Positions 22,611 through 42,219 of a stretch of 64,000 nt of DNA are shown piece by piece. A program made the position numbers and the translations under genes. Where the stretch lies: NCBI GenBank assembly GCA_049516595.1, contig JBEKSY010000006.1, forward strand, positions 66,621 to 130,620. Reading direction: 5' to 3'. Each line of letters starts with the position of its first letter. The first letter of the stretch is position 1. The notes below the pieces were generated by a model. The model saw only the letters and a program-made list of their open reading frames with translations. It was not told the DNA's origin and ran no database searches. The stretch is from Anaerolineales bacterium. GTDB lineage: Bacteria; Chloroflexota; Anaerolineae; Anaerolineales; RBG-16-64-43.

Positions 22611-22692
22611 CGACCTGCGAGCGAAATGATGGTACAGGAATCCCTCTGAGCCGGTCAAGAGGGTCAAGTTATTTTCGCCAAGGAGACGAACC

Positions 22693-23301
22693 ATGGCACA
22701 CGAACTGCCCGCCCTGCCGTATGCCTATGAGGCGCTGGAGCCATACATCGACGCCCAAACCATGCGGATTCATCACGACATGCATCACAAGGCGTATGTG
22801 GACGGCCTCAACAAGGCCGAGACGATGCTCAAGGACGCCCGCGCCAAGGGCGACTTTGCGCTCGTCAAGCACTGGGAGCGCGAGCTTGCCTTTCACGGAT
22901 CGGGACACTTCCTCCATTCTGCTTTCTGGCAGGTGATGGCCGCAAGCGGGAAGGGGGGTGGCGGCAAGCCGGGGGGTGACCTGCTCAAGGAGGTGGAAGC
23001 GACCTTTGGTTCCTTCGAGGTGTTCAGCAAGCAGTTCAGCGCGGCCGCGGGCGCGGTGGAGGGATCGGGTTGGGCCCTGCTAGTCGTCCAGCCCTCTAAG
23101 AAACACCTGGAGATCTTGACCGCCGAGAAACACCAAAACCTGACCCAGTGGGGAGCGACCCCCATCCTGGTGTTGGACGTCTGGGAACACGCCTACTATC
23201 TCAAGTATCAGAACCGCCGAGGGGACTACGTTCAGGCCTGGTGGAATGTGGTCAACTGGCCCGAGGTGGCTAAGCGCTTCGCGGCGGAGTTCAGCAAGTA
23301 G
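22693..23301 (+). CDS. sodA: Fe/Mn superoxide dismutase
   Basis: LPALPYAYEALEPYIDAQTMRIHHDMHHKAYV ... LVLDVWEHAYYLKYQNRR. Confidence 0.95.
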   Translation: MAHELPALPYAYEALEPYIDAQTMRIHHDMHHKAYVDGLNKAETMLKDARAKGDFALVKHWERELAFHGSGHFLHSAFWQVMAASGKGGGGKPGGDLLKEVEATFGSFEVFSKQFSAAAGAVEGSGWALLVVQPSKKHLEILTAEKHQNLTQWGATPILVLDVWEHAYYLKYQNRRGDYVQAWWNVVNWPEVAKRFAAEFSK

Positions 23302-25809: not shown

Positions 25810-25971
25810 CTAGAGCCAACTCGCCAGAAGGCCCAGGGCGAATCCCGCGGCCAAAGCGATCCCGGCGGGTCGCAAGTACCTTCGGGCCGAATAGAGCCCC
25901 TTCAGAACCTGCTCCACTGCCATCAACAGGTAGAGCTGGGTCTTCAACCAGGTCAATTCAAAGTTCATCAT
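25810..25971 (-). CDS. Unlisted 53-aa ORF, predicted small membrane protein
   Basis: My own translation: MMNFELTWLKTQLYLLMAVEQVLKGLYSARRYLRPAGIALAAGFALGLLASWL. It is below the track's 60-aa cutoff. TAAGGAG (stop of the upstream ORF plus SD) lies 8 nt before ATGATG. Confidence 0.45.
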   Translation of the reverse strand: MMNFELTWLKTQLYLLMAVEQVLKGLYSARRYLRPAGIALAAGFALGLLASWL

Positions 25972-25983
25972 CTCTCGGGCTCC

Positions 25984-26220
25984 TTACTTGGAAGTGCTGA
26001 TCCTCAGGATCTGACCCCGCTCATCCGCCACAACCCGCACCAAGCGAGGCAGCAGCGCTCCACTATCCGTGCGAACCTTGCCCCGGTAGGTGAGCGCATA
26101 CTGCGTCCGCCCCCCGGCGCCGGACTGGGTGCTGAGGCTGGGATGGACCCCTCGCAGTTCTGGGTATTCCCGGTATACCCGGGCACTAATTCGTTCCACA
26201 AGCTGAGAAGACATGCCCAT
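25984..26220 (-). CDS. Hypothetical 78-aa protein immediately downstream of ftsZ
   Basis: It starts 5 nt after the ftsZ stop and I recognise no family. The protein-like ending (RLVRVVADERGQILRISTSK) suggests a small beta-rich domain. Confidence 0.5.
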   Translation of the reverse strand: MGMSSQLVERISARVYREYPELRGVHPSLSTQSGAGGRTQYALTYRGKVRTDSGALLPRLVRVVADERGQILRISTSK

Positions 26221-26225
26221 GAGAA

Positions 26226-27482
26226 CTAAGCCTTTCCCGTTCGCACCAGGCGGTTACTGCTGGTAGAGGCCAGGGCCTCCTCGAGCCCTCGCCGGCGCCG
26301 GCGGATGAAGGCGGGCACGTCCAGATCTTCTTCGGCCGAAGGGGGCTGGACGCGGTGGGCTGCATGCGCCGCAGAAGCCGGGGTCGTCTCCAGCGATAGC
26401 GCGCGCTCCTCTTCGGGTTTGACCGAGGTAGCTTGCAGGAGGATGTGGGAGGCGCCAGCCAGAACACTCCCCAGCGGCTGCCCACCCACGCCCGTGACCA
26501 CGACAATAGCCTGGACGCGCCCGCTCATGCCCGGATCGATGGCGGCTCCAAACACAACCTCCGCGTCCTTGGCGCCTGCGGCCTGGATCTCCTGCATCGC
26601 CTTGTGCACTTCCATCAGCTCCAGGTCTTCCCCTCCGGTGAAGTGGACCAGGATTCCTGCGGCATGATCCAAGGAGCCAATTTCCAGCATGGGATTGCGC
26701 AGGGCAGACCGGACCGCGGACACGGCTTTGTCCGGCCCGCTGCCCTGACCCACGGCGAAGTAGGCGCCGCCTGCGAGCTGCATTAGCGCTCGCACATGGG
26801 AGAAGTCGACGTTCACGAGTCCCGGGCGAGTGATCAACTCGGTGATGGCCTGCACCCCCTGCCGGAGAACATCGTCGGCCAGCCGCAAGGCGACGTCAAA
26901 GCTGGTCTGCCGCGGGGCCACCGCAAGCAGCCGGTCATTGGGGATCGTGATCAAGGTGTCGCAGTATTCGCGCAGGCGCTCCATGCCCGCTTCCGCAATC
27001 AGGGCCCGTTTGCGTCCCTCGAAGGAAAAGGGCAGGGTGACAATGGCCACAACGATCGCACCCTGCTTGCGCGCGATCTCAGCGGCCACTGGGATGGCGC
27101 CCGTTCCTGTCCCACCGCCCAACCCACAGGTCAGGAACACCATGTCGCCCGGCCCCAGCACCTCCGCCAGCTCCCGCTCGCTCTCGCGGGCGGCCGCCTC
27201 ACCCACATCCGGCATTCCTCCTGCACCCAGGCCCCGGGTCGTATGCGGCCCTAGGGCGACCTTGACTGGCGCCAGGCAGGTGGCCAGGGCCTGTTGGTCT
27301 GTGTTGCATGCAATGAACTCGACGCCACCCAATCCGAGCTCAATCATTCGGTTGACTGCGTTGGACCCTCCGCCGCCCAGGCCAACCACCTTAAGCACCG
27401 TGACCCCGGGCGCCAAAGCCTTCTCGGGCCGGGTTGGGCTCAAGCTGAAGTCCTGGGGTTTCCCCAAGAATGCGTTCGTCAC
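26226..27482 (-). CDS. ftsZ: Cell division GTPase FtsZ
   Basis: KVVGLGGGGSNAVNRM, tubulin signature GLGGGTGTGAIPV, NTDQQAL, C-terminal peptide DLDVPAFIRRR. The GTG at 27482 (V16 of the track ORF) is preceded by GAGAGGAG and overlaps the upstream stop codon (GTGA). Confidence 0.95.
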   Translation of the reverse strand: MTNAFLGKPQDFSLSPTRPEKALAPGVTVLKVVGLGGGGSNAVNRMIELGLGGVEFIACNTDQQALATCLAPVKVALGPHTTRGLGAGGMPDVGEAAARESERELAEVLGPGDMVFLTCGLGGGTGTGAIPVAAEIARKQGAIVVAIVTLPFSFEGRKRALIAEAGMERLREYCDTLITIPNDRLLAVAPRQTSFDVALRLADDVLRQGVQAITELITRPGLVNVDFSHVRALMQLAGGAYFAVGQGSGPDKAVSAVRSALRNPMLEIGSLDHAAGILVHFTGGEDLELMEVHKAMQEIQAAGAKDAEVVFGAAIDPGMSGRVQAIVVVTGVGGQPLGSVLAGASHILLQATSVKPEEERALSLETTPASAAHAAHRVQPPSAEEDLDVPAFIRRRRRGLEEALASTSSNRLVRTGKA

Positions 27483-28744
27483 AGAGCACTCCTCTCGCCC
27501 ACCGATCTCAGCGGCTCGACAAGGCATCCGGCTGTCTGGAGACGCTCAACGAGGTCCATCGGCGGTTCGTCGCCCAGGACCGTCACCCGCTCGGCCTGCA
27601 TGGCCTCCTCAACCGAATATCCGCAAGTCGGCCGGTAAGTGCGCAGGTAGTCTTGAATGGTCTGCCAGGCTCCCTGAGCTAGCTCCTCGGCCTCAGGGGG
27701 GATCAGGAAGTAATGTTCGAAGCGCTTGCCAGCCGGATCTGGCCCCGGAGGGGTCGTCTGGCTCTGCAGCCGCTTCAGTCCATCCACCACGGGCAAGCTG
27801 GTCCCATCCGACCGGTACCAGGCCTGGTCGGCGAAGGGGCTGGCCTCTTCCGTCGCGAGCAACCAGAAGGTCACATTCTGCAGCCAAAATGGAAGCCTCC
27901 CCATGCGGGCCTGCCGGGCGATCTGAAGATTGATCTCTGAGTGGCGCTCCGGATCGGCCGGAGGAAAGTTGGGGTCGATGCGGCTGTGGAGCACGGCTCC
28001 CCCGCGAACCATCACGATCGGTCGCGGCTCGCCCAGGTGGCTCTGGACGATTTCCTCGACCCACTGGAAACCAAAGAAGCCCCGATGGTCTTCGCTTCCC
28101 GGCGGGGTAAGGTAGGGGCGAGCCTCCGGCCAGCGTTCGCACCCGCCGCGACCCCAATCCCAAGGGCGGTTGTAGGCCCAGGCGTCGACCGCGAACTCCA
28201 TGCTCGAGAGCAGCTCGGCCTTCCCGCGGCGCTCGATGGAGGTCAGGGCCGCATCGAGGAACGACAGATCCCAGTAGTCTCCTCCCGGGTAGAGCGGAGG
28301 GAACAGAGGAATCAGCCCTTCCTCCTGTTCCATTTCCGCAATCGGAAGAAAGACATCGAGGAATTGCTCGACGGGAGAGGCCTGCGACCACTGGCCCGGT
28401 CGCCAGGATTCTTGCTGGTTGGGAGCCGAGAATAGGGCCAAGTAGCGTGCTCCCCAACCCGCGTAGCTGCGGAAGAGCAGCCGCAATTCGGGGCCCAGGG
28501 GGCGAATGGGGCTTTCAGGGAGGTGCAGGATGGGTTGGATCCCGGATTCTCGGAGGGCGCAGATGAAGCTTTCAGGAATGGCTCGCGCGAGACCGGAGCG
28601 AAGGGTCAGCCACCCGAGTTCGAGAGCCTGGAACTCGGGCAGCCAGCGTGCAAGATCCTTGGTTGTGTAATGCAGGTCGTCCGGGTAGTAATGAAGCCCC
28701 AGGCGTGTTCGCTCGGCGGTAATGGCAGCGTTCATCGGCGTCAC
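27479..28744 (-). CDS. Hypothetical 421-aa protein, translationally coupled to ftsZ
   Basis: I recognise no family. Trp/Pro-rich, possibly TIM-barrel-like, with no obvious signal peptide or TM segment. The start is GTG 28744 or ATG 28735. Confidence 0.7.
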   Translation of the reverse strand: MTPMNAAITAERTRLGLHYYPDDLHYTTKDLARWLPEFQALELGWLTLRSGLARAIPESFICALRESGIQPILHLPESPIRPLGPELRLLFRSYAGWGARYLALFSAPNQQESWRPGQWSQASPVEQFLDVFLPIAEMEQEEGLIPLFPPLYPGGDYWDLSFLDAALTSIERRGKAELLSSMEFAVDAWAYNRPWDWGRGGCERWPEARPYLTPPGSEDHRGFFGFQWVEEIVQSHLGEPRPIVMVRGGAVLHSRIDPNFPPADPERHSEINLQIARQARMGRLPFWLQNVTFWLLATEEASPFADQAWYRSDGTSLPVVDGLKRLQSQTTPPGPDPAGKRFEHYFLIPPEAEELAQGAWQTIQDYLRTYRPTCGYSVEEAMQAERVTVLGDEPPMDLVERLQTAGCLVEPLRSVGERSAL

Positions 28745-28759
28745 CCCGTGGATGAACGT

Positions 28760-28775
28760 TGCAAGGCCTGTGCCA
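28760..28775 (-). promoter_or_regulatory. Sigma-54 (-24/-12) promoter, perfect consensus
   Basis: The minus strand reads TGGCACAGGCCTTGCA inside the 41-nt gap between the 940-aa gene and the 421-aa/ftsZ pair. Confidence 0.7.
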
Positions 28776-28785: not shown

Positions 28786-31608
28786 CTATCGGGAGACTGC
28801 CAACTTGATCAGATGGCCTGCTGCGTCAAGGCTCAGCCTTGCGAATTGAGCGTGGCCCGGGCCGTGGCCTTCGATTCGCTTGTCGAGCAAGATAACCCAA
28901 GCCGGAAGACCGCCAGCCGAGCTGGCTACCGCAGGATCCTTGGGGATGGCTGGATCTCGGCGAGGCACGATCTGGGGTTCAAACACCCGTGCCCGGCTGC
29001 CTGTCATGCCCGGCAGGCTGGCCTTGAGGACTTCCTTGAGAGAGTTCTCCAGATCGGCCGGCAGGGTTGCCAAAGAAGTGTCGTCCAGCGCCTTGACCGC
29101 GAGTAGGTCCAGGTCGGCCGGACGCGATTCGCGACGCAAGGCGCTCTTGGTGCCCGTCCCCTGAGCGAATTCCCGAGGCACAAAGAACGGATCGCCAAGG
29201 TGGATGAAAGAGATCAGCGTCTTCTGGTCTTCCCCATCGAGGTATCCTTGACGCCGTCGCATTTCCTCGGCAAAGGTCAGCTTCGCTTGCCTGAGTGCCT
29301 CGCCGGAGGGAAGGCCTCGAGTCAGGCTCTGCCAGTAGTGGAGGGCCACAAGATCTGCTCCAATGAGCGGAGGAGCGGCCGCCCCATAGGCGATCTTGGT
29401 AGAACCCACCAGGGCCCGTGTCCCTGATTCCAAGAACTTCAAGGCGAGTGCGGAATCAATCGTCTTGCTCAACACGTTCGCGCCATAACAGGCCTCGCTG
29501 AAGACTACAGTCGGGGCCCGGCCTGAGTTGGTCACCTGCGCAGGTCGCAAAGCCGTTGGAAACTCGACCGCGGACGAAGCGGATCCGGGCGAACGTTGAC
29601 CGTACCACTCTGGCGCATCCTCCAAGCCGTGCAGATTGAAGTAGGAGTACCGAGGGAAGGCCAAGTCCGCCGCCGGAAGTGTGTCGGCATCCGTGGGAGG
29701 CGAGATCAACATCGAATTGGACTGGCCAATCGGTCGGTATGCCCCCAGGGAGGCAGAGTGCCAGATGCTGGCCGTATACCCCAGACTCTTCCGAAAGCGC
29801 TTCACCCTCGGATGAAGGAGCAGCCTGATCCACCCGTACAATCGAGCCAGTGGGGTCGGCGCTTTCGCGGGAGCCTCGTCAATGATTCTCTGGATGGCCT
29901 TCAGGAGAAACTGGGGGTCATTGCCGGTTGGGTTGGGGATACGGCTCACCGGCCATTCCGGCACGTAGTAATTCTCGTCCCGGGTTGCGTAGGGATTGTC
30001 AGAAGGAACATCGTGATCGTCGTCGTCGGCGGGATTCGGAAGCCGGTGAAATGGAATGATGTCATGCCCACCGATAATGAGCAAGGCACCAATCATCTCG
30101 CCGCGCCGCGCCAGGGCGGCGTCCAGTTGACAGACCAGGCGCTTCACGTCGGCAGCATTGGAAGCCGGCACGCTCTCCAGTTGGAAGGGGCTCAGGGTTT
30201 CCGCGTCATCGGCGTAGATGGCATAGGCCGACCAGCCCTTGCGGGCGTGCTGGGAGCGAACCAGGGAGGTGAGGGATTGACAAATCGCCGCGGTCGCGCT
30301 CAGCCCATATTGGCTCTGCAGGTTCGCGAGACTCGAGAGTACGACCAAGCTGGGCCGCCTTCGGTCTTCGTCCGCCGGCTTCTTGCGCATGTGCAGCCTT
30401 CGCGCCACCCGGTCCAATTCCGCCCGAACCCGCATGAGGTCCTCGTCCTCTTGTGGTTGACCTTGTGAATCGGCTGGTTGGGTGGAGCCCGAGGGGGCCG
30501 TCCCGTGGGTTGCCTGGGGCGCGCCTGGGTTGGGGGGCAGCGCTCCTGAAGGTCCTTGGAAGTGTTCCCCGGGCAATGGACGGATTTCGACGGGCGTCTC
30601 GTCCGAGACGGGAACAGGAATCGAGGCCTCTGCCGGCGCTGGGACCGGGGGTGAGGTCAGCCCCCCGGATGGACCGCGGAAGTGCTCCCCCGGCAGCGGA
30701 CGAATTTCTGCGCCCGCCTCGTCGACCAGGAGGCTCGTGGGTGGGCCCACGGCCTCCGACCCAGGGATAGGAGACGGGTCCAGGTTGGGCGTCTCTATGA
30801 ATTCGTCCGCGCCTCGCGCCGCCGGGGTTGCCCCAGACAACTTGTTCAATCCCGCGGCGAACGCTACCGCCGTGGGAATGGACAAACGAATGTCCGCTTT
30901 GAGGTCAGCTGGCCAAAGGGCAAGATAGGGGTTGAAGGCCCCCAGCATACGTGCGCCCACCTCATGGGCGGGGTCGGCAACGGCCGCCAGGTGGAGAAGT
31001 TCCACAGCCTGGGTGGTCTTCCCGGTGGCCAGGGAGGCTTGCGCCAAGGCCAGCAAGATCGCCGGGCAGCCCGGCCAACGCTGGCGAGAGGCTCCCCCCA
31101 GGCACAGGACCGCCTCGTAATCGCCAGCCAACCATGCAACCTTCAGCTGGGCCCAGGCGGGAAGCAAAGAGTCGGGCCTTGCCCGTTCGACCTCCTCCAA
31201 CATCCGTTGCGCCTCGGCGTAATTGTGAGCATGGATCTGTGCCAATCCCTGACGCAGCAGCTCGGCCCAGGCAGGCAGGGGGAGGGGTGACGAAATCGGG
31301 TCGGTTGAAAGTGAGGAAACGAACCCCAGCGAGTCGCGCGCGGCCTCTTCCTGACCCAGGGCGCTCTGGATATCGCTGGCGGTCCGGTAGAAGGCAACCT
31401 CCTCGGGATCCGCGACCTGGGCGATCTCAATGTGCCTGGACGCGGCTCCCAGGTCGTGCAATTGCTGGTAGGCCTGGGCCAGGAAATACCGTATGCGGAA
31501 GTCGCCTGGCCATTGTCCCAGCCAGCTCCGCGAGGCATCGCGCGCGAAGGCCGAGGCGCGCACGGTGAGGGCCGCATCCGCAAGGTTAAGCAGGGTCTTT
31601 CGATCCAC
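28786..31608 (-). CDS. TPR / Pro-rich repeat / gingipain-like (peptidase C25-like, clan CD) putative cysteine peptidase
   Basis: The N-terminal ~250 aa are TPR-like helices. The C-domain has LLIIGGHDIIPF...SDNPYA...VSRIP, His-Gly (FNLHGLED, H660) and Ala-Cys (VVFSEACYG, C707) 47 residues apart, as in clan CD. No signal peptide. GTG start is 3 nt after the upstream stop, with a GAGGTGA SD. Confidence 0.8.
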   Translation of the reverse strand: MDRKTLLNLADAALTVRASAFARDASRSWLGQWPGDFRIRYFLAQAYQQLHDLGAASRHIEIAQVADPEEVAFYRTASDIQSALGQEEAARDSLGFVSSLSTDPISSPLPLPAWAELLRQGLAQIHAHNYAEAQRMLEEVERARPDSLLPAWAQLKVAWLAGDYEAVLCLGGASRQRWPGCPAILLALAQASLATGKTTQAVELLHLAAVADPAHEVGARMLGAFNPYLALWPADLKADIRLSIPTAVAFAAGLNKLSGATPAARGADEFIETPNLDPSPIPGSEAVGPPTSLLVDEAGAEIRPLPGEHFRGPSGGLTSPPVPAPAEASIPVPVSDETPVEIRPLPGEHFQGPSGALPPNPGAPQATHGTAPSGSTQPADSQGQPQEDEDLMRVRAELDRVARRLHMRKKPADEDRRRPSLVVLSSLANLQSQYGLSATAAICQSLTSLVRSQHARKGWSAYAIYADDAETLSPFQLESVPASNAADVKRLVCQLDAALARRGEMIGALLIIGGHDIIPFHRLPNPADDDDHDVPSDNPYATRDENYYVPEWPVSRIPNPTGNDPQFLLKAIQRIIDEAPAKAPTPLARLYGWIRLLLHPRVKRFRKSLGYTASIWHSASLGAYRPIGQSNSMLISPPTDADTLPAADLAFPRYSYFNLHGLEDAPEWYGQRSPGSASSAVEFPTALRPAQVTNSGRAPTVVFSEACYGANVLSKTIDSALALKFLESGTRALVGSTKIAYGAAAPPLIGADLVALHYWQSLTRGLPSGEALRQAKLTFAEEMRRRQGYLDGEDQKTLISFIHLGDPFFVPREFAQGTGTKSALRRESRPADLDLLAVKALDDTSLATLPADLENSLKEVLKASLPGMTGSRARVFEPQIVPRRDPAIPKDPAVASSAGGLPAWVILLDKRIEGHGPGHAQFARLSLDAAGHLIKLAVSR

Positions 31609-31611
31609 ACA

Positions 31612-34600
31612 TCACCTCTTGTCCGGGGCGAGTTCGGGCAGGCCATACACGAGGCCAAGCGCCATCACGGCGGATAGCAATTTGTGAGCGGGCAGATTGC
31701 TCGGGTTCAACTGGACAGCCTTGCGCAGCGCATCGGTAGCCTCGGAGTAGGAGCGCAGATTCTTGAGGACCACTCCCATCCGGTACATCACCTCACTGTT
31801 GGTTGGGTTCAGCCGCGCGGCGGCCCGATAGGCCTCCAGCGCGAGATCCCAGCGCTGCTGACTCTCCAGCGCGAGTCCCAACTCCAGATCCGCTCGCCAG
31901 TCCTTCGGATCCAGCTCGCGGGCCCGCCGGACGGCGTCCAACGCTTGGTCGATCTGACCCAGCTTGCGAGCCACCCGGCCGATAAGCAGCCAGTGCTCCC
32001 CCCGTCGTGGGGCCGCTTCCGCTGCCGTTTGGGCGCGCCGGAGAGCCTCTTCCCCTTTTCCGAGTTTGAGCAGCGCTTCCGCCAGGGAATGGGAAAGGGC
32101 GTCGGAGTTCGGATGGGCGGGTTCGATCGCCAGAAGAGCCTCGACGGCGCGCTCGGGTTTCCCGGAAAGGATCCAAAGCTGGGCAAGGTGCAGAGTCTCA
32201 TTGAACGGATCTGGCAGGAGAGAAGCGGCCTGTCCCAACAACACGGCGGCTTGATCCAAATGCCCCTCGCTCTCCTCGATCTCGGCCAGGATGGAGAGCG
32301 ATTGTCCTTGATAGCGCGTGTCCGCCCCTACCTTTTCGACCAACCTGCGTGCTTCGGCTCGATGGCCCGTGGCAATCAGGGCACGCGCAAGGCAGAGACC
32401 CCACTCGACGGGCGCTCTTGGGGAGGACGTCTCGAGGGCCTTGCGGAGGTTCTCCGTGGCCTCTTGGGGATTCCCGGACTCCAGTGCAAGTTCACCGGCT
32501 TCGGCCAGGAGTTGCGGCGAGACCGCCTGGGAAAGGAAGAGGGCCTGGCGATAGTGGGTATGCGCGCCCTGCAGGTCGCCGTCGCGACGCAGCGCACGGG
32601 CCAGGCTGATTTGGTACTCTGGGTTCTCGGGGGATATCTCAGCCGCCCTTTGGTAATGCGCAATAGAGGCCTCGATTTCTCCCCTGGCTCCAAGCCATTG
32701 TCCAAGCAAATGCTCCCAGGTCGAGACGTGCGGCGCCAGAGCAACCGCCTTCTGGAGCGAGGGGATGGCCTTTTCCATATTTCCCGCGGCTGCGTGAATA
32801 AGTGCTCCGATGGCGTGCGGCAAGGCGAGGAAAGAGGCCAAATCGCTGGCCAAGCCGAGGCTCCGCAGCGCCTCGTCCGGTTTTCCCATCTTCCATTGGG
32901 CGAGGGCGAGCGCGAGGCAGGCGGTGGCATTGCGAGGATCGAGTTGTACCGCCTGCGCTGCCCATTGGTTCGCTTTGGATGGGTCGCCCGTCCTCAAATG
33001 CGCCTGAGCCAGGGAAATCAAGGCGGGGGTGGAGGGACTCTCCGCAACGAGGTGCTCAAGATCCTCCACCTCCCGAGGATCCGGATGGGCGAAGGCCAGG
33101 CAGATTCGCGCGCCCAGGGTCGCGATGATCTCATTGGGGGCCCCTAAGAAGGTGGCCTGCGCGAGGGCAGCGCGGGTGGCTTCCGCCGTGGCCGAGGATA
33201 ATGCCTCTGCCCACCCGGGGCTGTCCGCAGCGTGAGCGGCCTGCCAGCGGAAGAAGGCCTCCGCTCGGGCGGTCAAGGCTTCCGCCAAACGCAGTGGATA
33301 GTCCCCCGCATCAGGATAGGCCTGGCTGAGCCCCTCCAGCAATCGGATGGCGGAGGAGTAGTCTTCGACCAGAAGAGCGGATTCTGCGGTGGTTGACATC
33401 CCCTCGCGCGATGATCCGCAATGGGCCAGGGCATTCTGCAGCGCCAGAAGGGCAGGGTGCTGAAGGGCTGCGTCAGGAGCGGGAGCACCCAGGCACGCGT
33501 GGCTCTTCGCCAGCAAGGCCCAGGCAAAACTATCCTCGGGAGCCTCTCTAACCAGCTGGTCCGTGATCCGCAGGGCCTCGTCTGGCGCGCCGGAGTCGAG
33601 CGCAATCTGAGCTTCCAGTCTCCGGGCCTCAAAGCTGCCCGGGTCCCCCTCGATCGCCTGTCGGACCCAGGCAAGCGCCTTAGCATGGTCACCGCTTCTG
33701 AGCGCGGCCTGCGCGGCCGCTGCCAGGAGCTGAGGGTTGGAGGGATCCGTTTCGATGGCCTTCTCAAAGTAGTGTACGGCCTCGCCAAACCCTCCTGTAT
33801 TCAGAAGAGCATCGGCCAAGCGAGCCGTCAGGGCCTGGGCTTTCGGTCCGAGTCCGATCGCTTTCTTCCAGAGGGCAATCGCGGCTCCTCGGCGGCCATC
33901 CTCCCAGTAGGCCTCCGCCGCGTGCGCCAACAGATCCGGGTTAGCAGGCTCCAAATCGGTTGCCTTCGAGAAGGCCTCGATGGATTCCTCGAATTGGCCG
34001 GAGCGCAACATCGCTTGGCCAAAAGTGTCCAGCGCGCGCACATCCGAGGGGTTGTGCTCGAGGGTGTCGCGCAGAATCCGACCGGCCTCGGCATACTCCT
34101 TAAGGTCCATCAGAAACTGAGCGGCGCGAATGGGGATCTCCCGATCCTTTCCCGAGGCGATGGCAATGGCCTTGGCCATGGCCTGCCGCGCCATATCGAC
34201 CTGATTGTTCACCACAAGGGTTTCCGCGAGATCGGCCCAGCCGAGTGCCTGGTTGGGGCTCAGTTCCGTCGCCTGTTCGAGCAGCTGCACGGCCTGGTCG
34301 GTTTGCCCCACCCTCCGCAGAACCAGGGCCAAGCCGCGAAGGGCCTCGGCCTGGTCGGGAACCAGCGCGAGCAACCGCTGATAGGCCTCGCGGGCCTCCT
34401 CAAGGGAACCTGCCGCTGCAGATGCTCGAGCGAGCATCTGCAGGGAGGATGGATTGTCCGGGATGATCTGGAGGGCCAGACGCGCGTGGGCAATGGCCGA
34501 GGCGGAATCCTTCAGCAGGAGAAAGGCCTGAGCCGCTCCGAGATGGGCCTCGCAAGCAGAAGGAAGGGAGGACAAGCTCTCCAGCGGAATGGCGCGAGTG

Positions 34601-36864
34601 AATGAGGCGAGTGCTTCCCTCGGCTTCCCATCCAGGAGCAGAGCCTGCCCCAACAAATTGAAATAGGAAGGATCGGCCTGGTCGTCGCATTGTTGCTGGG
34701 CTGGTTGCAGCAGATCAATTGCCTGTCTGAGGAGAGGGGTTTCTTCGTCACCCCCTTTGTGGTAAAGGGAAATCAGGGCCTTGCCCAGTCGGAGGAGAAG
34801 CGCAGTCGATGCAGGGCGAACCTTCAAGCCACTCTCCAGGGCGGCGCGCGCTTCCACCAACCGTCCCTCTGCCTCCAGCAGATCGGCCAGAGCGAGGATC
34901 AGCTCAACCTGTGCCGGTGACACCTGCAGCGCAGTTCGAAGCGCCTGCTCCGCCTCGGCCGTCCGGCCCAAATGAATAAGCGCCTCGGACAACGGCTGCA
35001 GGAGCTTGGGATCTCTCGGTGAGAGGGCCACTGCGCGTTGAAGAGCGGCCGCGGCTTCGGTGGCTAGGCCTCTCTTGAGTGCCAGTTTGCCAAGGACCAG
35101 CAGGAGTTCTCCGGGTCGGCTTGCGGATTCGACCCCGGCCCGTAGGGCAGCGGCCGCACTCTCGAGGTCGCCGCCTTTTTCATGGAGTTCGGCAAGCGCT
35201 TTCCAGGCCAGGGCGGAGGAGGGAGAAATCTGAGTTGCCTGTTGCAGGGTGGCCTGGGCTCCGTTCAGGTCGCCTTCCGCGAGAAGAGCAGCCCCCAGGA
35301 TGGCATGGGCCTCGCCCGAGTCAGGTTGGATGGCCAAGAGTCTGCGGGCGGCATCCCTGGCTTGGCCGGAATCCCCGGCTTGGAGGCTTGTCTGGGCAAG
35401 GTGCAGGACCGCCTCGGAATCGGCCGGCCGGTCCTGCACGAGGCGACGCCAGCAGTCTTGGGCCTCCAGGAAATCTCCAGCCATTTCGTGTCCCTGGGCC
35501 ACAACCTGCAGAGCCGAGGTCCTGGTGGGATCTAGGGTCCAGGCGAGGAAGGCGGTGCTTCGGGCGGAATCCCAGTTCCCCGAGCCCGCCTGGTAGTTGG
35601 CGAGGTCGAGCAAGGCCTCAGGGTCGGAGGGCTTTCTGTCCACCACGGATCGTTGGATCTCAGACGCTTCTGGGTAAGCTCCTTGGGCGGCCATCGACCG
35701 AGCAGTCTCGACGAGGAGCCCGCAGGAGACTTGCTGTCGGTCGGCTTGAGCGCCGCGGAGCGCGAACTGGCGGGCCAGGGATCCATTCCCTTGCGCGGCA
35801 TGGATCTGCGCGAGGGCCAACAAATCTCCCGGATCCTCTGGGTTGGAGGGGATCAACTGCAACGCTTCCGCGAACCGATTCAGGCGCACGAAAGCTCGTG
35901 CCATTCCAGCCCTGGCCTCGGAGGAATCGGGCAGGAGGTCCTGCAGTTCCTGAAAGGCCGCCAGAGCCGTAACCGGATCATTGTGTTGGAGGGCGTCGTT
36001 GGCCAACTCGCTCGTCCAAGTCGCCGCCCGGCGCTTCGCGCTCTCCACCAGCCGCTCAAGATTCTCCCGGGAGGCTTCCGCGGATCCCATCGCCCGTCTC
36101 ACCCGCGCCGCAAGCAGAGTTTCTAGCTCGCCGGGTTTCGCCGTCTCCGTCTGGAGAGAGGGAGAGGCTGAGTTGGTGGGCGTGGCTGGCAGGCGATTGA
36201 AAACGGTAGCGATGTTGCGCTCGAGATCCAGTTCTCCCAGATCATGGGCCGCCTCGAGCAGGGCAATGATCTGATCAGGCTGGAGAAGGGGGACCCAGGA
36301 CCCGAGAAACTGGTCCAAGGATTCTCCCTCGAGATTGGCAAGGATCGCATGGATCACGGCGGCCGGCTCTGCGGGGAGTCTGGAGGCCAGGACCGAGCAG
36401 ACCGCTTGCCCGTCGCTCAGCATGCCGAGCAGATAGATCAACACTTGCGGGGCGGCCTCCCCCATCCGGGAAAGCTGCTCCGCCGGGCTTGGGCGCGTGG
36501 CGATCGAGAGCGCAGCGAGCGCAAATTCCGAGATGCTCCCGGGCATTCCCTTGGCAAGAGCCTCTTGCGCCGCCCGAGCCCGCGTCTGCAGCTCCCCCGA
36601 GAGCGACTTGTCTGCCCTCCTGTTCTCGGGCTCCAACGCGTAACGGACTGCTTCCGTTTCCCTGGCCTTGAGCAATCCCAGAACGGCAGGTCGATAACGG
36701 CCCAGATCTTTGCCCGCCATGCGAATCGAGGATTGCAAGAACTCCTCCTCATGCAGGGCCTGCCAAAGGCCCGGCTCCTGGCGCAGCCTTCGCGCGGCGG
36801 AGGTCAAGGAAGGAGAGGGAATGGCATCGCCGAGGCGCTGAAGCAGACCGAGTTCAGTGACCAT
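31612..36864 (-). CDS. Giant TPR-repeat protein (1750 aa)
   Basis: Dozens of 34-residue Ala/Leu-rich repeats (..A...LG.AL...G....A...Y..AL.L.P..). No Walker A motif, signal peptide or TM segment seen. The N-terminal ~240 aa are non-TPR helical. Confidence 0.85.
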   Translation of the reverse strand: MVTELGLLQRLGDAIPSPSLTSAARRLRQEPGLWQALHEEEFLQSSIRMAGKDLGRYRPAVLGLLKARETEAVRYALEPENRRADKSLSGELQTRARAAQEALAKGMPGSISEFALAALSIATRPSPAEQLSRMGEAAPQVLIYLLGMLSDGQAVCSVLASRLPAEPAAVIHAILANLEGESLDQFLGSWVPLLQPDQIIALLEAAHDLGELDLERNIATVFNRLPATPTNSASPSLQTETAKPGELETLLAARVRRAMGSAEASRENLERLVESAKRRAATWTSELANDALQHNDPVTALAAFQELQDLLPDSSEARAGMARAFVRLNRFAEALQLIPSNPEDPGDLLALAQIHAAQGNGSLARQFALRGAQADRQQVSCGLLVETARSMAAQGAYPEASEIQRSVVDRKPSDPEALLDLANYQAGSGNWDSARSTAFLAWTLDPTRTSALQVVAQGHEMAGDFLEAQDCWRRLVQDRPADSEAVLHLAQTSLQAGDSGQARDAARRLLAIQPDSGEAHAILGAALLAEGDLNGAQATLQQATQISPSSALAWKALAELHEKGGDLESAAAALRAGVESASRPGELLLVLGKLALKRGLATEAAAALQRAVALSPRDPKLLQPLSEALIHLGRTAEAEQALRTALQVSPAQVELILALADLLEAEGRLVEARAALESGLKVRPASTALLLRLGKALISLYHKGGDEETPLLRQAIDLLQPAQQQCDDQADPSYFNLLGQALLLDGKPREALASFTRAIPLESLSSLPSACEAHLGAAQAFLLLKDSASAIAHARLALQIIPDNPSSLQMLARASAAAGSLEEAREAYQRLLALVPDQAEALRGLALVLRRVGQTDQAVQLLEQATELSPNQALGWADLAETLVVNNQVDMARQAMAKAIAIASGKDREIPIRAAQFLMDLKEYAEAGRILRDTLEHNPSDVRALDTFGQAMLRSGQFEESIEAFSKATDLEPANPDLLAHAAEAYWEDGRRGAAIALWKKAIGLGPKAQALTARLADALLNTGGFGEAVHYFEKAIETDPSNPQLLAAAAQAALRSGDHAKALAWVRQAIEGDPGSFEARRLEAQIALDSGAPDEALRITDQLVREAPEDSFAWALLAKSHACLGAPAPDAALQHPALLALQNALAHCGSSREGMSTTAESALLVEDYSSAIRLLEGLSQAYPDAGDYPLRLAEALTARAEAFFRWQAAHAADSPGWAEALSSATAEATRAALAQATFLGAPNEIIATLGARICLAFAHPDPREVEDLEHLVAESPSTPALISLAQAHLRTGDPSKANQWAAQAVQLDPRNATACLALALAQWKMGKPDEALRSLGLASDLASFLALPHAIGALIHAAAGNMEKAIPSLQKAVALAPHVSTWEHLLGQWLGARGEIEASIAHYQRAAEISPENPEYQISLARALRRDGDLQGAHTHYRQALFLSQAVSPQLLAEAGELALESGNPQEATENLRKALETSSPRAPVEWGLCLARALIATGHRAEARRLVEKVGADTRYQGQSLSILAEIEESEGHLDQAAVLLGQAASLLPDPFNETLHLAQLWILSGKPERAVEALLAIEPAHPNSDALSHSLAEALLKLGKGEEALRRAQTAAEAAPRRGEHWLLIGRVARKLGQIDQALDAVRRARELDPKDWRADLELGLALESQQRWDLALEAYRAAARLNPTNSEVMYRMGVVLKNLRSYSEATDALRKAVQLNPSNLPAHKLLSAVMALGLVYGLPELAPDKR

Positions 36865-36914
36865 GTCACTCCTTGGGGAGAGGATGGGAGGCGGGCCCCG
36901 AGCCTAGGCTCTGG

Positions 36915-37253
36915 CTACACGACCCAGTGGATTTGCAGCACGATGAAGTAGGCGGCACCCATCATCGCGATCCCCATCGCCATCAAGAAAACGCCTATGC
37001 CGGTTGAGGTCTTGGTCAGCTGGTTGATCACCCCAAGAATGTCGGAAACGTCCGTCACCAGCCCAGTGACATCGTGAGTGACTGCCTTGGCTCCCAGCTT
37101 GGCAGACTGTGCGGCCAGGGTGTGCATGTCCCGTGAAAACCCGCTGCTGATAAGGACCAAAATGCCGGCAGCCAGGCTGCACAGGCCCGCACCCATTGCG
37201 GTCAGGGCGATGAGGATTTGAAGATCCTGCAAGTTCATCGATCCGGAAATCAT
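36915..37253 (-). CDS. Small two-TM membrane protein (112 aa)
   Basis: MISGSMNLQDLQILIALTAMGAGLCSLAAGILVLI ... GIGVFLMAMGIAMMGAAYFIVL. ATG 37253 is preceded by CGGGAGGCCAAC. It is the first gene after the sigma-54 promoter. Confidence 0.65.
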   Translation of the reverse strand: MISGSMNLQDLQILIALTAMGAGLCSLAAGILVLISSGFSRDMHTLAAQSAKLGAKAVTHDVTGLVTDVSDILGVINQLTKTSTGIGVFLMAMGIAMMGAAYFIVLQIHWVV

Positions 37254-37295
37254 GTTGGCCTCCCGAGGTTCTCGCGGTTTTCTCGAGGGGTTGGG

Positions 37296-37311
37296 TGCAA
37301 GGGGCGTGCCA
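37296..37311 (-). promoter_or_regulatory. Sigma-54 (-24/-12) promoter, perfect consensus
   Basis: The minus strand reads TGGCACGCCCCTTGCA, 43 nt upstream of ATG 37253 and just downstream of the activator gene's terminator. Confidence 0.75.
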
Positions 37312-37335: not shown

Positions 37336-37363
37336 AAAAAGGGAGCTGCGCGTGGCAGCTCCC
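37336..37363 (-). terminator. Rho-independent terminator after the activator gene
   Basis: Minus strand: GGGAGCTGC-CACG-CGCAGCTCCC followed by TTTTT, about 30 nt after the stop at 37394. Confidence 0.75.
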
Positions 37364-37393: not shown

Positions 37394-38614
37394 TCAGGCC
37401 TTCGCGCGGCGGGTGGATGGCTTGACCGCTGGAGGTTCTGAGAGCAAGGCGGCGAAATCTCCCGGAAGATCCCCCACGTCGATTTCGGCGCCGTCGCAGA
37501 GCATAGCGGCTCGCTCCACCACGTAGCGCAGCTCTCGAATGTTCCCTGGCCAGGGGTGGGCGGCCAGGCCCTGAAGTGCGCGTGGAGTGGCTCCGCCCAA
37601 AGAGGCTCCTGTGCGCTCGTTGTACTTGCGCAGGAAGAGGCCGACCAGGGCTGGGATGTCTTCCTTTCGCTCTCTCAGAGGAGGCAAGTGGAGGTCGGCA
37701 ACCTTTAGGCGATAGTAGAGGTCCTCGCGGAATTCCCCCTTTTGACTAATGTGCTCCAGGTCTCGATTGGTCGCAGCAATCACCTGGACGTCCGTGTGCA
37801 GTTCGGCGATCCCGCCCACCCTGCGGAAGGCGTGATCATCCAGAAAGCGCAGGAGCTTGGCCTGAAGGTCGAGGCGCAAGCCGGAGATTTCATCCAGAAA
37901 GAGGACGCCCTCATCCGCCGCCTCCACCAATCCGGGCTTTCGTTTTTGCGCGTCGGTGAAGGCCCCCGCCTCGTGTCCAAAGAGTTCCGACTCAATCACC
38001 TCGGCAGGCAGCGCCGCACAATTGACGGGGAAAAAGGGCTTGGCGGCCCGCGGGCCCATTAGATGGATCGCCCTGGCCAAGACCTCTTTGCCTGTCCCCG
38101 TTTCGCCGGTGATTAGGACGGGAGCCGAGGTGGCGGCCGCCCGCCGCGCCTCATGCAACACGCGCTGCATGGCCGGGCTTTCGCCGGGAATCCAGTCCAG
38201 CGCCTCCGCTCTGGCCGACCTTTGGTAGTAGTCCAGCTCGCGCTGCAGGCGTACGACCTCGGCCGTCCGCTGGATCACGCTTCGCAAATGGTCCGGGTCG
38301 AGCGGCTTTTCGAGCAGGTCAACTGCTCCCAGTCGAGTAGCCTCGACTGCGGTCGCGATGCTACCGTGACCGGTGACCACCACGGTCTGTGGGCGAGGCC
38401 GCATGTTGGAGATCCTCCGCAGGAGATCGAGCCCGTGGCCGTCCGGGAGATTGAAATCGCAAATTACGATATCTGGGAGCTGCGTGTCAATCGTCCGGCT
38501 TGCGTCCCCCAGGGTCGCCGCCTCCAGGATCTCAAATCCGTCGGCCTTAAGAATCCTTGCCATCGAGCCACGCGCCTTAGCTTCGTCCTCCACAATGAGG
38601 ATACTGTACGACAT
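37394..38614 (-). CDS. Sigma-54-dependent response regulator (REC + AAA+), no DNA-binding domain
   Basis: ILIVEDE...DIVICDFNLPDGHG (REC), Walker A GETGTGKE, GAFTDA (GAFTGA variant), VLFLDEI. The protein ends about 45 aa after the AAA+ lid with no Fis-type HTH. Its ATG overlaps the kinase stop codon (TGATG). Confidence 0.9.
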   Translation of the reverse strand: MSYSILIVEDEAKARGSMARILKADGFEILEAATLGDASRTIDTQLPDIVICDFNLPDGHGLDLLRRISNMRPRPQTVVVTGHGSIATAVEATRLGAVDLLEKPLDPDHLRSVIQRTAEVVRLQRELDYYQRSARAEALDWIPGESPAMQRVLHEARRAAATSAPVLITGETGTGKEVLARAIHLMGPRAAKPFFPVNCAALPAEVIESELFGHEAGAFTDAQKRKPGLVEAADEGVLFLDEISGLRLDLQAKLLRFLDDHAFRRVGGIAELHTDVQVIAATNRDLEHISQKGEFREDLYYRLKVADLHLPPLRERKEDIPALVGLFLRKYNERTGASLGGATPRALQGLAAHPWPGNIRELRYVVERAAMLCDGAEIDVGDLPGDFAALLSEPPAVKPSTRRAKA

Positions 38615-40584: not shown

Positions 40585-41997
40585 CTAGGGGCTTGACACA
40601 ACAGCTTGGCGTTGCGACCGCTGTGCCTTCCTGAGTGCAGCCGGCAGAATCCCTTCCATTGCGCGGTATTTGGCAATCGTTCTGCGCGCCACCGGAATAC
40701 CCCGTTCTCGCAGCATCCCGGCGACCTTGGTGTCCGTGAGGGGCTCGGTCTCCCCGGCAATAATGGAGCGGACCTCATCGCGAACTGAGAGACTCCGATC
40801 GAAGAATCTTGAAAGGGGAATGATGCGGCCATTGGGAAGCGTAGCCCTCTTGCGGCTGACTGCGCGCGAAATCGTCGACTCATGAACCCCCAGGCGCTTG
40901 GCCACGAGGGCGCGGGTCAACGGCTTGAGATCCCGGTCCGTGCCCAGGATGAACTCCCGCTGCTCCTCAGCCAAGGCTCGGGCCAGCCTCAGGAGGGTGT
41001 TCTGGCTTTGCCTGAGACATTTCTCAACGAGGGCCGCCTCCTCGACCTTGGCCTCCCAGTTGTCCCGCTCATCGCCTGCCAAGCTGCGCAGGGCCTCACG
41101 AAATTCCGAGCTCACGTGCAGGCGCGCCGCCAGGGGGGCGAACACCTCAACGATCAGCGGGCCGTTAGCCTGATGGGGGGACAGGCGAAAGGTCATTTCG
41201 GCATCGGTGTAGCGGTCTGGTTCGGGTGCCGCTCGGGCGTGGTCGGATCCGAGAAAGGCCCGGCCGGGATAGGGCGTTAGATTGAGGTGAATGAATCTGG
41301 CTGCCTGCTCGACCAGGGCGCGCGAGATCCCAAGCTGGCGCGCAATCGTTCCGTATTCTCCTCGGGCGAGCTCCTCCAGGTGGTCTCGGATGATGGGGCC
41401 GACGCATTCGGGAACGGGCTTCGTCTCGCTGAGTTGATCGACCTGAATGAGCAGTGCCTCCACAGGCGAGGGGGCGCCAATGCCAGGGGGGTCACCTCGC
41501 TGGATCATGTGGAGTGTCCGCTCGATCAACGCCAGCGGCTTGTGCAGGTACTGGGCAGCCTCAGCCGGGCTCTCGGATAGAAGGCCATTTTCGTCGAGGC
41601 GAGCTAGAAGATAGACCGCAACGGGACGCTGCTCGTCGTCGAGTTCGGGGCCAATCTGCTTCATCAGTCGCTCGCGCAGCCCTTCTGGCTGGGCTGGTTC
41701 GGGGAGATCCTCCAGGCTCTGGCTGGAAGCCGAATGGACCGGAGGGGGGGAAAGGAAAACGATGGGCTGATCGCTGGGGGCGTGGCAGACCGGGCAGGGG
41801 CCGGGCAGGTAAAGGGGGCGGTGGCAGGTCGGACAGCGGGCTGGCTTGACGAGCTCCAGAGCTGGATTGGAGGCGAGCACGGAATTCAACCACTGGTTGA
41901 GCTCGGCTCGCGAGAGGCTCAGCAGGTTCATCGTCTGGGCCAGGTGGGCCGTTGCAGTCTGGCGCAGGCGAGGCAGATTACGTTGCGCAGTGTACAT
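40585..41997 (-). CDS. rpoN: RNA polymerase sigma-54 factor
   Basis: Region I (LRQTATAHLAQTMNLLSLSRAEL), HTH and RpoN box (ARRTIAKYRAMEGILPA). ATG 41997 is preceded by CTGGAGGAGACGCA. The track ORF start at 42159 is an extension. Confidence 0.92.
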   Translation of the reverse strand: MYTAQRNLPRLRQTATAHLAQTMNLLSLSRAELNQWLNSVLASNPALELVKPARCPTCHRPLYLPGPCPVCHAPSDQPIVFLSPPPVHSASSQSLEDLPEPAQPEGLRERLMKQIGPELDDEQRPVAVYLLARLDENGLLSESPAEAAQYLHKPLALIERTLHMIQRGDPPGIGAPSPVEALLIQVDQLSETKPVPECVGPIIRDHLEELARGEYGTIARQLGISRALVEQAARFIHLNLTPYPGRAFLGSDHARAAPEPDRYTDAEMTFRLSPHQANGPLIVEVFAPLAARLHVSSEFREALRSLAGDERDNWEAKVEEAALVEKCLRQSQNTLLRLARALAEEQREFILGTDRDLKPLTRALVAKRLGVHESTISRAVSRKRATLPNGRIIPLSRFFDRSLSVRDEVRSIIAGETEPLTDTKVAGMLRERGIPVARRTIAKYRAMEGILPAALRKAQRSQRQAVVSSP

Positions 41998-42219
41998 TGC
42001 GTCTCCTCCAGGGGGCCGCAATCCGCGCCTCGGCGTTGATGCTTTCTGGAATGCGCCCGAATTGGCGCCCGAGGGGCCGGAGTATAGGTCAAAACCCTTA
42101 AGGTGACAAGTTGCAAGTAGCATGCCTACGGGCACGCCGCTTGCACACGGCTCTGCCAAGGGGTTTGGAGGCTTGAGATTGGCTGTTCTTGTGCTTGGGG
42201 CGGTCTGGGCGGCCGGTAT

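Follow-up and report, generated by a model that had tools for sequence, protein, structure and literature searches.

Organization of the locus

The present analysis deals with a gene cluster located in a stretch of 64,000 nucleotides from an Anaerolineales bacterium (GenBank assembly GCA_049516595.1, contig JBEKSY010000006.1, positions 66,621 to 130,620 of the forward strand), which is referred to as the window and whose own numbering is used throughout. The cluster, entirely carried by the minus strand, consists of regulator genes followed by two tandem operons with predicted sigma-54 promoters, ftsZ being located inside the second operon. The first operon encodes a small membrane protein, a giant protein built from tetratricopeptide repeats (TPR) and a protease-like protein of 940 residues, and had already been singled out in an earlier description made from the letters of the DNA, referred to below as the sequence-only reading. 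Its components are the following:

37296-37311, minus strand: sigma-54 promoter P1, TGGCACGCCCCTTGCA, with a perfect -24/-12 consensus
36915-37253, minus strand: TM112, a small membrane protein of 112 residues with two transmembrane (TM) segments (hydrophobic segments at residues 11-40 and 83-108)
31612-36864, minus strand: TPR1750, a presumably cytoplasmic TPR scaffold of 1750 residues (TPR_19 at 2e-100, 21 stretches)
28786-31608, minus strand: protease gene, an open reading frame of 940 residues
30859-31608, minus strand: N-terminal TPR domain of the protease, residues 1-250 (TPR_19 at 1e-8 over residues 160-215)
30352-30858, minus strand: Pro-rich variable linker of the protease, residues 251-419 (17.5% Pro over residues 255-420)
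29179-30351, minus strand: two-lobed C25-like clan CD catalytic domain of the protease (AlphaFold2 model, Foldseek, and PF01364 matches of homologues)
28789-29064, minus strand: C-terminal alpha+beta domain of the protease, residues ~849-940, paralogous to the protein p78 of the second operon (hhalign)

The three co-directional genes that the sequence-only reading had placed behind a promoter at 37296-37311 were all recovered as open reading frames, and the promoter agrees with the consensus at every position. The start codon of TM112 (ATG at 37253) is located 42 nt from P1, a gap of 50 nt separates TM112 from TPR1750, and only 3 nt occur between TPR1750 and the protease gene, at a junction that reads AAGAGGTGA-TGT-GTG and contains the GAGGTGA Shine-Dalgarno sequence previously described. 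The gene calls available for a near-identical metagenome contig of the Joint Genome Institute (JGI) agree with this organization for the genes of 1750 and 940 residues and, downstream of them, for the genes of 418, 78 and 53 residues, the gene of 112 residues being outside that locus. No Rfam match was found over 25-43 kb of the window.

To extend the description to related organisms, a pattern scan performed on one genome per GTDB species retrieved the protease gene from at least 597 species genomes, nearly all of them from Anaerolineales. The best 80 loci were kept (designated L001 and so on where they have to be told apart), and the neighbouring proteins of the window were compared with them by tblastn, all counts being restricted to loci with enough flanking sequence.

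The 940-residue protease

Members of clan CD (caspases, gingipains/C25, CHAT) are defined by an H-G ... A/S-C dyad carried by a caspase-hemoglobinase fold. The sequence-only reading had assigned the 940-residue protein to this clan, as a gingipain-like peptidase, and had described in it a TPR N-terminal domain, a Pro-rich linker and a C-terminal domain containing several motifs and a candidate dyad; each of these elements was found as described. The motifs of the C-terminal domain occur at residues 509 (LLIIGGHDIIPF), 536 (SDNPYA) and 554 (VSRIP), while H660, encoded by CAC at 29629-29631 and followed by Gly, is separated by 47 residues from C707, encoded by TGT at 29488-29490 and preceded by Ala. 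The N-terminal TPR domain is conserved among the homologues. The linker, otherwise unalignable, contains a motif P-x-P-[GW]-E-x-[FY]-x-G-P in about 39 of 41 homologues, which is present twice in the protease of the window (EIRPLPGEHF[RQ]GPSG, at 30670-30699 and 30550-30579); no other copy, such as might point to a cleavage site in FtsZ or p421, occurs in the six-frame translation of the window.

The evidence for the clan CD assignment comes mainly from structure prediction. A model of the C-terminal region (residues 420-940), built by AlphaFold2 from an alignment of 60 sequences, is of medium confidence (pLDDT 73, pTM 0.78), and a Foldseek search with this model gave the gingipain Kgp (4rbm, catalytic plus Ig-like domains) as the best match, with an E-value of 7e-10. 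The next matches, with probabilities of about 1.0, correspond to SAVED-CHAT (3e-5), human and yeast separase (3e-5 to 7e-4) and the TPR-CHAT protease of Craspase (1e-3). In the model, the His and Cys residues are each located right after neighbouring strands, 235-239 and 282-285 in the numbering of the C-terminal domain, so that both hallmarks of the clan, an alpha/beta/alpha fold and a conserved His-then-Cys dyad following neighbouring strands, are present in the predicted structure. The dyad geometry anticipated by the sequence-only reading is thus that of the model, and the conservation it had called for is also observed, since H660, G661, C707, Y708 and G709 are invariant in 41/41 and 29/29 sequences and kept in 59/60, these sequences sharing only 36-57% identity.

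At the level of sequence the resemblance is much fainter. Pfam and NCBIfam recognize nothing but TPR families in the protease of the window, which stays below the Peptidase_C25 gathering threshold (23 bits) both as a whole and as an isolated C-terminal domain, with no hit even at E<=10, and which shows no hit to the CHAT domain (PF12770). Among the homologues, 23/41 match PF01364 at E<=1e-3 (best 7e-13) over the C-terminal third of the profile, and two of them, scanned singly, reach about 40.6 bits over profile positions ~261-372 of 374. For CHAT, with a threshold of 24 bits, the highest scores reached by homologues are 15.9 and 18.2 bits, and 2/41 homologues match at E<=1e-3. Searches of PDB chains with the C-terminal domain as a single sequence, with a full-length profile (swamped by TPR) and with a profile of the C-terminal domain only yielded no clan CD structure; the relationship to clan CD is visible only through the fold and the partial Pfam matches of the homologues. 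Accordingly, the gingipain-like character proposed by the sequence-only reading stands at the level of the fold and is not accompanied by any Pfam C25 hit in the protein of the window itself. Judged by the curated thresholds, the family is neither bona fide C25 nor CHAT; it represents a new and large branch of clan CD close to C25, represented by 1912 matches when the scored candidates of the 90% clusters are counted, and by 1474 clusters at an identity level of 50% (E<=1e-3). Nearly all of these homologues measure about 850-1000 residues and share the same architecture, and those bearing an organism name originate from metagenome-assembled genomes (MAGs) of Anaerolineales/Anaerolineae. They are labelled in databases as 'hypothetical' or 'TPR repeat protein', occasionally as 'C25 family cysteine peptidase' or 'CHAT'.

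Most members of the family possess, in addition, a Cys/His-rich insert in the C-terminal domain (C-x-I-H-x-Q-H-x2-C-x3-D-H-x-C-P-x-H-Q), possibly a metal site, which is absent from the protease of the window and from its closest relatives (L001, L002, L007).

Whether such a domain still cuts proteins deserves consideration, because the weak similarity to active C25 enzymes, together with the N-terminal lobe of the catalytic model, which recalls the pseudo-protease lobe of separase and the N-terminal subdomain of gingipains, would also suit a catalytically dead scaffold whose C25-like domain merely binds partners. This explanation seems quite improbable to us, in view of a His-Gly and an Ala-Cys that remain invariant or nearly so across divergent sequences and occupy the canonical positions after adjacent strands. 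The 940-residue protein is thus, according to the model, probably an active cysteine peptidase of clan CD and a distant gingipain-like relative at the fold level. The fold and the intact dyad are held with a higher confidence than the overall reading of the cluster presented below.

The protease is presumably cytoplasmic because it is devoid of any export signal, in agreement with the sequence-only reading, which had noticed no signal peptide in any of the three proteins; hydrophobicity checks revealed no signal-like segment in the protease or in TPR1750. A secreted or surface gingipain-like protease, devoted to feeding or to the processing of surface proteins, would be consistent with a best structural match that is itself secreted (Kgp) and with the name 'C25 family cysteine peptidase' given to some homologues by NCBI. 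However, no N-terminal hydrophobic stretch, TM segment or secretion domain occurs in the 940-residue protein; a TPR domain occupies the N-terminus, where a pro-domain would be expected, and a p78-like domain the C-terminus. The partners are cytoplasmic or small two-TM membrane proteins, and the predicted sigma-54 control is shared with ftsZ, all of which makes a secreted enzyme extremely improbable.

The membrane protein TM112 and the giant TPR protein

TM112 matches no Pfam family. TPR1750 consists almost wholly of TPR repeats, with one marginal internal hydrophobic segment and an N-terminal region of about 250 residues that matches no known family, and its length is well kept in relatives (1736-1755 residues). 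As the sequence-only reading had noticed, it is devoid of NTPase motif: no Walker A sequence ([AG]xxxxGK[ST]) and no NTPase family of Pfam could be found in it. The possibility that the N-terminus harbours a degenerate NTPase was considered and discarded, the only alignment, a weak one (E 0.006), being to the helical region that follows the NTPase in the giant protein of locus L084. This orthologue (L084:1170-7718), made of 2182 residues, does possess an N-terminal STAND-like P-loop, GRPGAGKT, with matches to nSTAND_NTPase5 (6e-5) and NACHT (1.5e-3) that both remain under the curated cut-offs. This comparison of sequences suggests that the scaffold may descend from a STAND NTPase-TPR protein, the NTPase having been lost in the lineage of the window.

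Such an ancestry brings to mind conflict or abortive-infection modules, in which a STAND/TPR protein acts together with a caspase-like protease that kills or arrests the cell once a threat is sensed. TPR and caspase-like pairings are typical of these systems, the protease model finds structural matches among defence proteases (SAVED-CHAT, Craspase TPR-CHAT), and the P-loop of the L084 giant, although below threshold for nSTAND/NACHT, is of the appropriate type. Against this, a single protease gene occupies one and the same housekeeping position throughout at least 597 species; its closest proteins come from the same sample type as the window and the identity decreases in remoter MAGs, which is read as vertical inheritance. 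The PADLOC models of defence systems gave no specific match, and none for the protease, TM112 or p421; the cluster lies in no mobile-element context, TPR1750 of the window lacks the NTPase motif, and the coupling to a canonical ftsZ is tight. A present role in conflict appears, on these grounds, very improbable.

The ftsZ operon

The second operon starts right after the protease gene and comprises four genes:

28760-28775, minus strand: sigma-54 promoter P2, TGGCACAGGCCTTGCA, with a perfect consensus
27479-28735, minus strand: p421, 418 residues from the ATG at 28735, a GH-A-like TIM barrel with a C-terminal alpha/beta domain
26226-27482, minus strand: ftsZ, 418 residues from the GTG at 27482 (TIGR00065, Tubulin and FtsZ_C)
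25984-26220, minus strand: p78, 78 residues, an open reading frame 5 nt after the ftsZ stop, also called by JGI
25810-25971, minus strand: p53, 53 residues, a small hydrophobic (TM) protein, an open reading frame 12 nt after p78 with an AAGGAG Shine-Dalgarno sequence, also called by JGI

The FtsZ protein is canonical, with a TIGR00065 score of 370 bits against a cut-off of 295, the GGGTGTG motif and a C-terminal DLDVPAFIRRRR. Its gene begins within the stop of p421 (GTGA, 27482-27479), behind a Shine-Dalgarno sequence GAGAGGAG. The JGI call for this gene (373 residues) starts too late and loses the nucleotide-binding strand GLGGGGSNAVNRM.

No hit was obtained for p421 in Pfam and NCBIfam. Its AlphaFold2 model (pLDDT 90) displays a (beta/alpha)8 barrel of the GH-A type, for which Foldseek retrieved PslG (GH39) at 6e-9, then GH2, GH10 and GH1. 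The residues G16, G98, N109, L151, G155, D159 and W228 are invariant. In 46 sequences none of the Glu residues is invariant or nearly so, and no Glu comes directly after the invariant N109; it is therefore unlikely that p421 acts as a canonical retaining hydrolase. Presumably cytoplasmic, the protein contains no export signal and no TM segment. The fusion of a p421-like domain to SpoIID in locus L084, described below, suggests that p421 may be tied to the wall glycan. Enzyme-like regulators of FtsZ are a known theme, exemplified by UgtP, OpgH, KidO and GdhZ.

The small protein p78 connects the two operons in another way. It adjoins ftsZ in 64/64 of the genome loci giving a p78 match, with 69 loci overall, and its family consists of 920 clusters in the protein database, all named 'hypothetical'. 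By hhalign, the p78 family aligns to the last 110 residues of the protease with a probability of 92% and an E-value of 5.7e-7, over 75 columns that cover the whole of p78, and both families end with the pattern G-x-[IV]-[LIM]-[KR]-[LMIV]-[AST]-[VIT]-S-[RK]. As judged from this alignment, p78 is a stand-alone paralogue of the C-terminal domain of the protease, a relationship visible only by comparison of profiles, since BLASTP between p78 and the protease C-terminus returned nothing. A search of Pfam and PDB matched p78 to no family, and a PepSY-like identity considered for p78 and the protease C-terminal domain was dropped for want of support from both. The last gene of the operon encodes p53, a counterpart of which (47-53 residues) also follows p78 in L083 and L084.

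Housekeeping genes (tilS, EamA transporters) follow the cluster, and among them, a few kb further downstream, sit a phage-type integrase (15119-16381) and a fragment of an IS110-family transposase (21777-22694), with no evident tie to the cluster.

Predicted sigma-54 promoters and their regulators

The genes upstream of the first operon correspond to a sigma-54 factor and a two-component system:

40585-42159, minus strand: rpoN (sigma-54), with the Pfam families Sigma54_AID, CBD and DBD and a TIGR02395 score of 230 bits
38614-40563, minus strand: soluble PAS histidine kinase (PAS_9, HisKA, HATPase_c)
37394-38614, minus strand: sigma-54 activator (enhancer-binding protein) of 406 residues, REC plus AAA+ (Response_reg, Sigma54_activat, AAA_lid_14)
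37341-37363, minus strand: intrinsic terminator after the activator gene, a 9-bp GC-rich stem followed by TTTTTCT

The coordinates of rpoN are those of the maximal open reading frame, the true start being probably located about 50 codons downstream. The kinase gene, whose translation displays no evident TM segment, starts 21 nt after the rpoN stop, and the activator begins at an ATG (38614) that shares nucleotides with the stop codon of the kinase (TGATG). Among the related loci, rpoN is present upstream of the cluster wherever the flank reaches that far, and a histidine kinase together with a sigma-54 activator occurs further upstream of the protease operon in 43/47. In one subclade (L007, L010, L012, L047, L083), an ABC-F ATPase replaces the kinase and the activator upstream of the operon. 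The same subclade shows an insert of 1.2-2.6 kb between the protease gene and p421, made of three opposite-strand genes in L083, both sigma-54 sites being kept.

Pfam detects no helix-turn-helix (HTH) family in the activator, whose match to the NtrC model stops at position 383 of 463 and whose sequence does not extend beyond the AAA+ lid. Past the GAFTGA loop, the activators of 47 related loci continue for another 147-213 residues (median 182), a length that we judge too short to accommodate a DNA-binding domain. Sigma-54 activators without DNA-binding domain, composed of REC and AAA+ and ending after the lid, are known from H. pylori (FlgR) and Chlamydia (CtcC); such proteins should contact the holoenzyme from solution and serve a regulon that is small and dedicated. 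With no HTH and an end right after the AAA+ lid, the activator of the window is therefore assigned to this enhancer-independent class. The loop that contacts sigma-54 reads GAFTDA in the window, as in 4/47 of the related loci, and GAFTGA in 39/47; a sigma-54 factor and an AAA+ activator with a GAFTGA-type loop are thus both encoded next to the cluster.

Perfect sites of the pattern TGGCAC-N5-TTGCA occur three times in the window, compared to 0.04 expected from shuffles. P1 is separated by the terminator (37363-37341) from the transcription unit of the preceding regulator gene, and its counterpart is found 29-54 nt upstream of the gene for the small membrane protein in 54/54 loci. P2 is located 10 nt past the stop codon of the protease gene, just before p421; its counterpart adjoins the p421 orthologue in 67/71 loci, and stays with p421 even in the subclade with the insert of 1.2-2.6 kb. 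Both sites combine GG at -24 and GC at -12 with a conserved position upstream of a gene, and are accordingly predicted to be sigma-54-dependent promoters of the same activator-dependent type. Transcription from P1 may in addition continue into ftsZ, as the search for terminators detected none that would separate the two operons. A simple scan of 17 kb for sigma-70-like sites retrieved a single one, upstream of rpoN, and none before p421 or ftsZ. The signal-dependent expression suggested by the sequence-only reading for the protease operon gains weight from the occurrence of P1 in 54/54 loci and from the adjacent rpoN, PAS kinase and activator.

The sigma-70-like match (TTGTCA-17-TATACT; 42081-42109, minus strand), which may drive the rpoN-kinase-activator operon, lies within the maximal rpoN reading frame, the likely true start of rpoN following about 66 nt later. 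The third perfect sigma-54 site, TGGCACGCAATTTGCA (9360-9375, minus strand), occurs about 100 nt upstream of a gene for a protein of 367 residues (8155-9258, minus strand), which may be a further member of the same sigma-54 regulon. The C-terminus of this protein is SnoaL-like, the N-terminal ~250 residues match nothing, and it proved unrelated when compared with p421.

Conservation of the cluster and of its link to ftsZ

The synteny on which the sequence-only reading had made its proposal depend is complete, the gene for the small membrane protein and that for the giant TPR protein, in this order, preceding the protease gene in 52/52 loci. Downstream of the protease, p421 and ftsZ are found in 62/65 loci. 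The whole cluster, with 48% identity and the same gene order, also occurs in a MAG labelled 'Methanosarcinales archaeon' (L035, JAIWHF010000034.1), an assignment that is probably a binning error.

Some loci depart from this organization in an informative way. Both L082 and L086 show a permuted order, p421-ftsZ-p78-...-TM112-TPR-protease, in which the set is still contiguous and TM112 precedes the giant TPR gene as elsewhere; a perfect sigma-54 site is located in front of p421 in L082 and immediately in front of ftsZ in L086. The more distant locus L084 has a perfect sigma-54 site followed by a REC protein, a small two-TM protein, the giant TPR protein of 2182 residues, a TPR/C25 protease of 759 residues and a p421 homologue. 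Next come (L084:11337-21334) a protein with a weak resemblance to DivIVA that stays under the Pfam cut-off, MraZ and a peptidoglycan amidase of 842 residues (Amidase_2), then FtsZ, p78, a small TM protein, a p421-like/SpoIID fusion of 1058 residues and an LCP protein. This neighbourhood is one of wall remodelling and division.

The proximity of the protease to ftsZ could nevertheless result from co-regulation without any shared function, the protease operon serving for instance stress or developmental proteolysis or protein quality control, and the few targets of sigma-54 in these organisms being clustered around rpoN. In favour of this explanation are the adjacent rpoN, kinase and activator, the 3/65 loci without p421-ftsZ beside the protease, and the third perfect sigma-54 site, located 19 kb away before an unrelated SnoaL-domain protein, from which it follows that the regulon is not limited to division genes. 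However, the subclade of L007 keeps both operons together even though its regulators are elsewhere, the permuted loci L082 and L086 retain the link, the module of L084 stands amid genes for MraZ, an amidase, FtsZ, SpoIID and LCP, and the ftsZ operon itself encodes a paralogue of the C-terminal domain of the protease. Co-regulation alone is thus considered rather unlikely. The rearranged loci, the division context of L084 and the p78 paralogy speak for a functional link between the two operons, beyond an inherited gene order. From these comparisons of genomes, the adjacency to ftsZ does not look incidental, and the connection that the sequence-only reading had offered as a speculation has gained comparative support.

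Proposed role of the cluster

Taken together, these data lead us to favour, somewhat more than we doubt it, a reading of the cluster as a sigma-54-gated, division-associated proteolysis module conserved across Anaerolineales and analogous to HetF and separase. Any specific substrate is proposed with a much lower confidence.

Several points weigh against it. All the evidence is comparative or predicted. The protease of the window has no Pfam C25 or CHAT score, the profile of its family retrieves no gingipain from PDB, and the model, of medium confidence (pLDDT 73), superimposes on Kgp with a TM-score of about 0.45-0.5 and a high rmsd. Three of the 65 loci (L029, L039, L056) carry the protease without p421-ftsZ within reach, and L085 possesses a p421 homologue without ftsZ. 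The adjacency could reflect shared regulation only, the targets of the regulon simply sitting near rpoN, and ftsZ may have other promoters invisible to a simple scan.

Assuming a proteolysis module linked to division, the following sequence of events can be imagined. The soluble PAS kinase would sense an intracellular cue and phosphorylate the activator, which would open both promoters without an enhancer, so that FtsZ would be made along with the protease machinery. TM112 would anchor the giant TPR scaffold at the membrane, where the scaffold and the TPR domain of the protease itself would dock protease and substrate. The protease would then make a limited, site-specific cut in a division inhibitor, in a tether or in FtsZ itself, and this cut would license or remodel septation in the filament. 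In such a scheme, p78 and the linker motif are candidate regulators, as competitor or pseudo-substrate. In its most complete version, ftsZ would be placed under a sigma-54 switch and coupled to a domesticated STAND/TPR-caspase-like 'death module', with a TPR platform of 1750 residues at the membrane, a protease of the separase/HetF kind licensing septation and p78 as its regulator; taken as a whole, this version is speculative and unlikely to be correct in all its parts.

Novelty and significance

Proteases combining TPR with a caspase-like domain, as well as division-linked proteases of clan CD, are already known kinds of proteins. As far as literature searches show, the split architecture, the coupling to ftsZ throughout an order, the conserved sigma-54 promoters before ftsZ and the p78 paralogue are new, and searches on sigma-54/ftsZ and on this cluster in Chloroflexota found nothing relevant. 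To our knowledge, the division machinery of Chloroflexota has hardly been studied, and we know of no case of an obligately activator-dependent transcription, of the sigma-54 type, for ftsZ. The organisms of the Anaerolineales, an order of filamentous bacteria, are hard to grow. What the cluster suggests is a mode of division control, assisted by a protease, that has so far not been described.

Should ftsZ be dependent, throughout the order, on a sigma-54 switch of the two-component kind, division would become a signal-gated decision and not a constitutive cycle. If the present reading is true, a second example of a caspase-like protease involved in the division of multicellular filaments would also be available, independent of that of HetF and parallel to the logic of separase. 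TM112, TPR1750, p421, p78 and p53 represent five widely conserved candidate division factors in Chloroflexota, and a role open to testing would become available for thousands of database entries that are named 'hypothetical' or 'TPR protein'. With respect to evolution, the cluster gives a hint that pairs of the STAND-TPR/caspase kind can pass, by domestication, from a role in conflict to one in housekeeping.

Comparison with known systems

With respect to its regulation, the cluster resembles the systems of FlgR and CtcC by the build of its activator; these control flagellar or late developmental genes, whereas the predicted targets of the activator of the window include ftsZ.

The closest structural relatives of the protease are the gingipains Kgp and RgpB of Porphyromonas gingivalis (MEROPS C25, PF01364), with which it shares, according to our reading of the model, an alpha/beta catalytic domain with two lobes, a small domain C-terminal to it, and a His that precedes the Cys, each right after a strand. 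In contrast to gingipains, with which the identity is only about 13%, it is devoid of signal peptide, pro-domain and type IX secretion domain, possesses an N-terminal TPR domain and a linker, and is presumably a cytoplasmic enzyme under predicted sigma-54 control.

The TPR-CHAT protease (Csx29) of the type III-E CRISPR Craspase and the SAVED-CHAT proteins are also structural matches, and Csx29 similarly consists of an N-terminal TPR region fused to a caspase-like protease, inactive until a partner changes its conformation. These proteins are, however, defence effectors associated with CRISPR or cyclic-nucleotide sensors, no such sensor occurring in the cluster, whereas the family of the window is inherited order-wide at one chromosomal locus. 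STAND NTPase-TPR proteins paired with caspase-like effectors occur in multicellular bacteria, and the cluster resembles them by the presence of a giant TPR protein next to a caspase-like protease and by the STAND-like P-loop of the L084 orthologue. It differs from them in that TPR1750 of the window and its close relatives have no NTPase, and by a context of division rather than of conflict.

Separase (MEROPS C50) offers another parallel, since it combines a large helical-repeat region, a pseudo-protease lobe and an active clan CD lobe, and performs a single-site cleavage gated by the cell cycle, with cohesin as target. It is a eukaryotic protein made of a single polypeptide, whereas the huge repeat array of the window is a separate protein; no counterparts of securin or cohesin occur in the cluster, and the relatedness is at the clan level only.

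The closest functional analogue is HetF from Anabaena PCC 7120, a clan CD protease tied to the FtsZ divisome of a filamentous multicellular bacterium. HetF, which belongs to the CHAT proteases, is a component of the divisome (PMC8406250) and cuts the division inhibitor PatU3 once, after Arg117 (PMC9457339). No PatU3 counterpart was identified in the cluster, where the link to division comes from the genes alone. The CHAT-family protease HetF is a membrane protein in its own right, and its gene does not adjoin ftsZ, whereas the protease of the window is a soluble, C25-like protein accompanied by a separate two-TM protein and by a TPR partner of 1750 residues.

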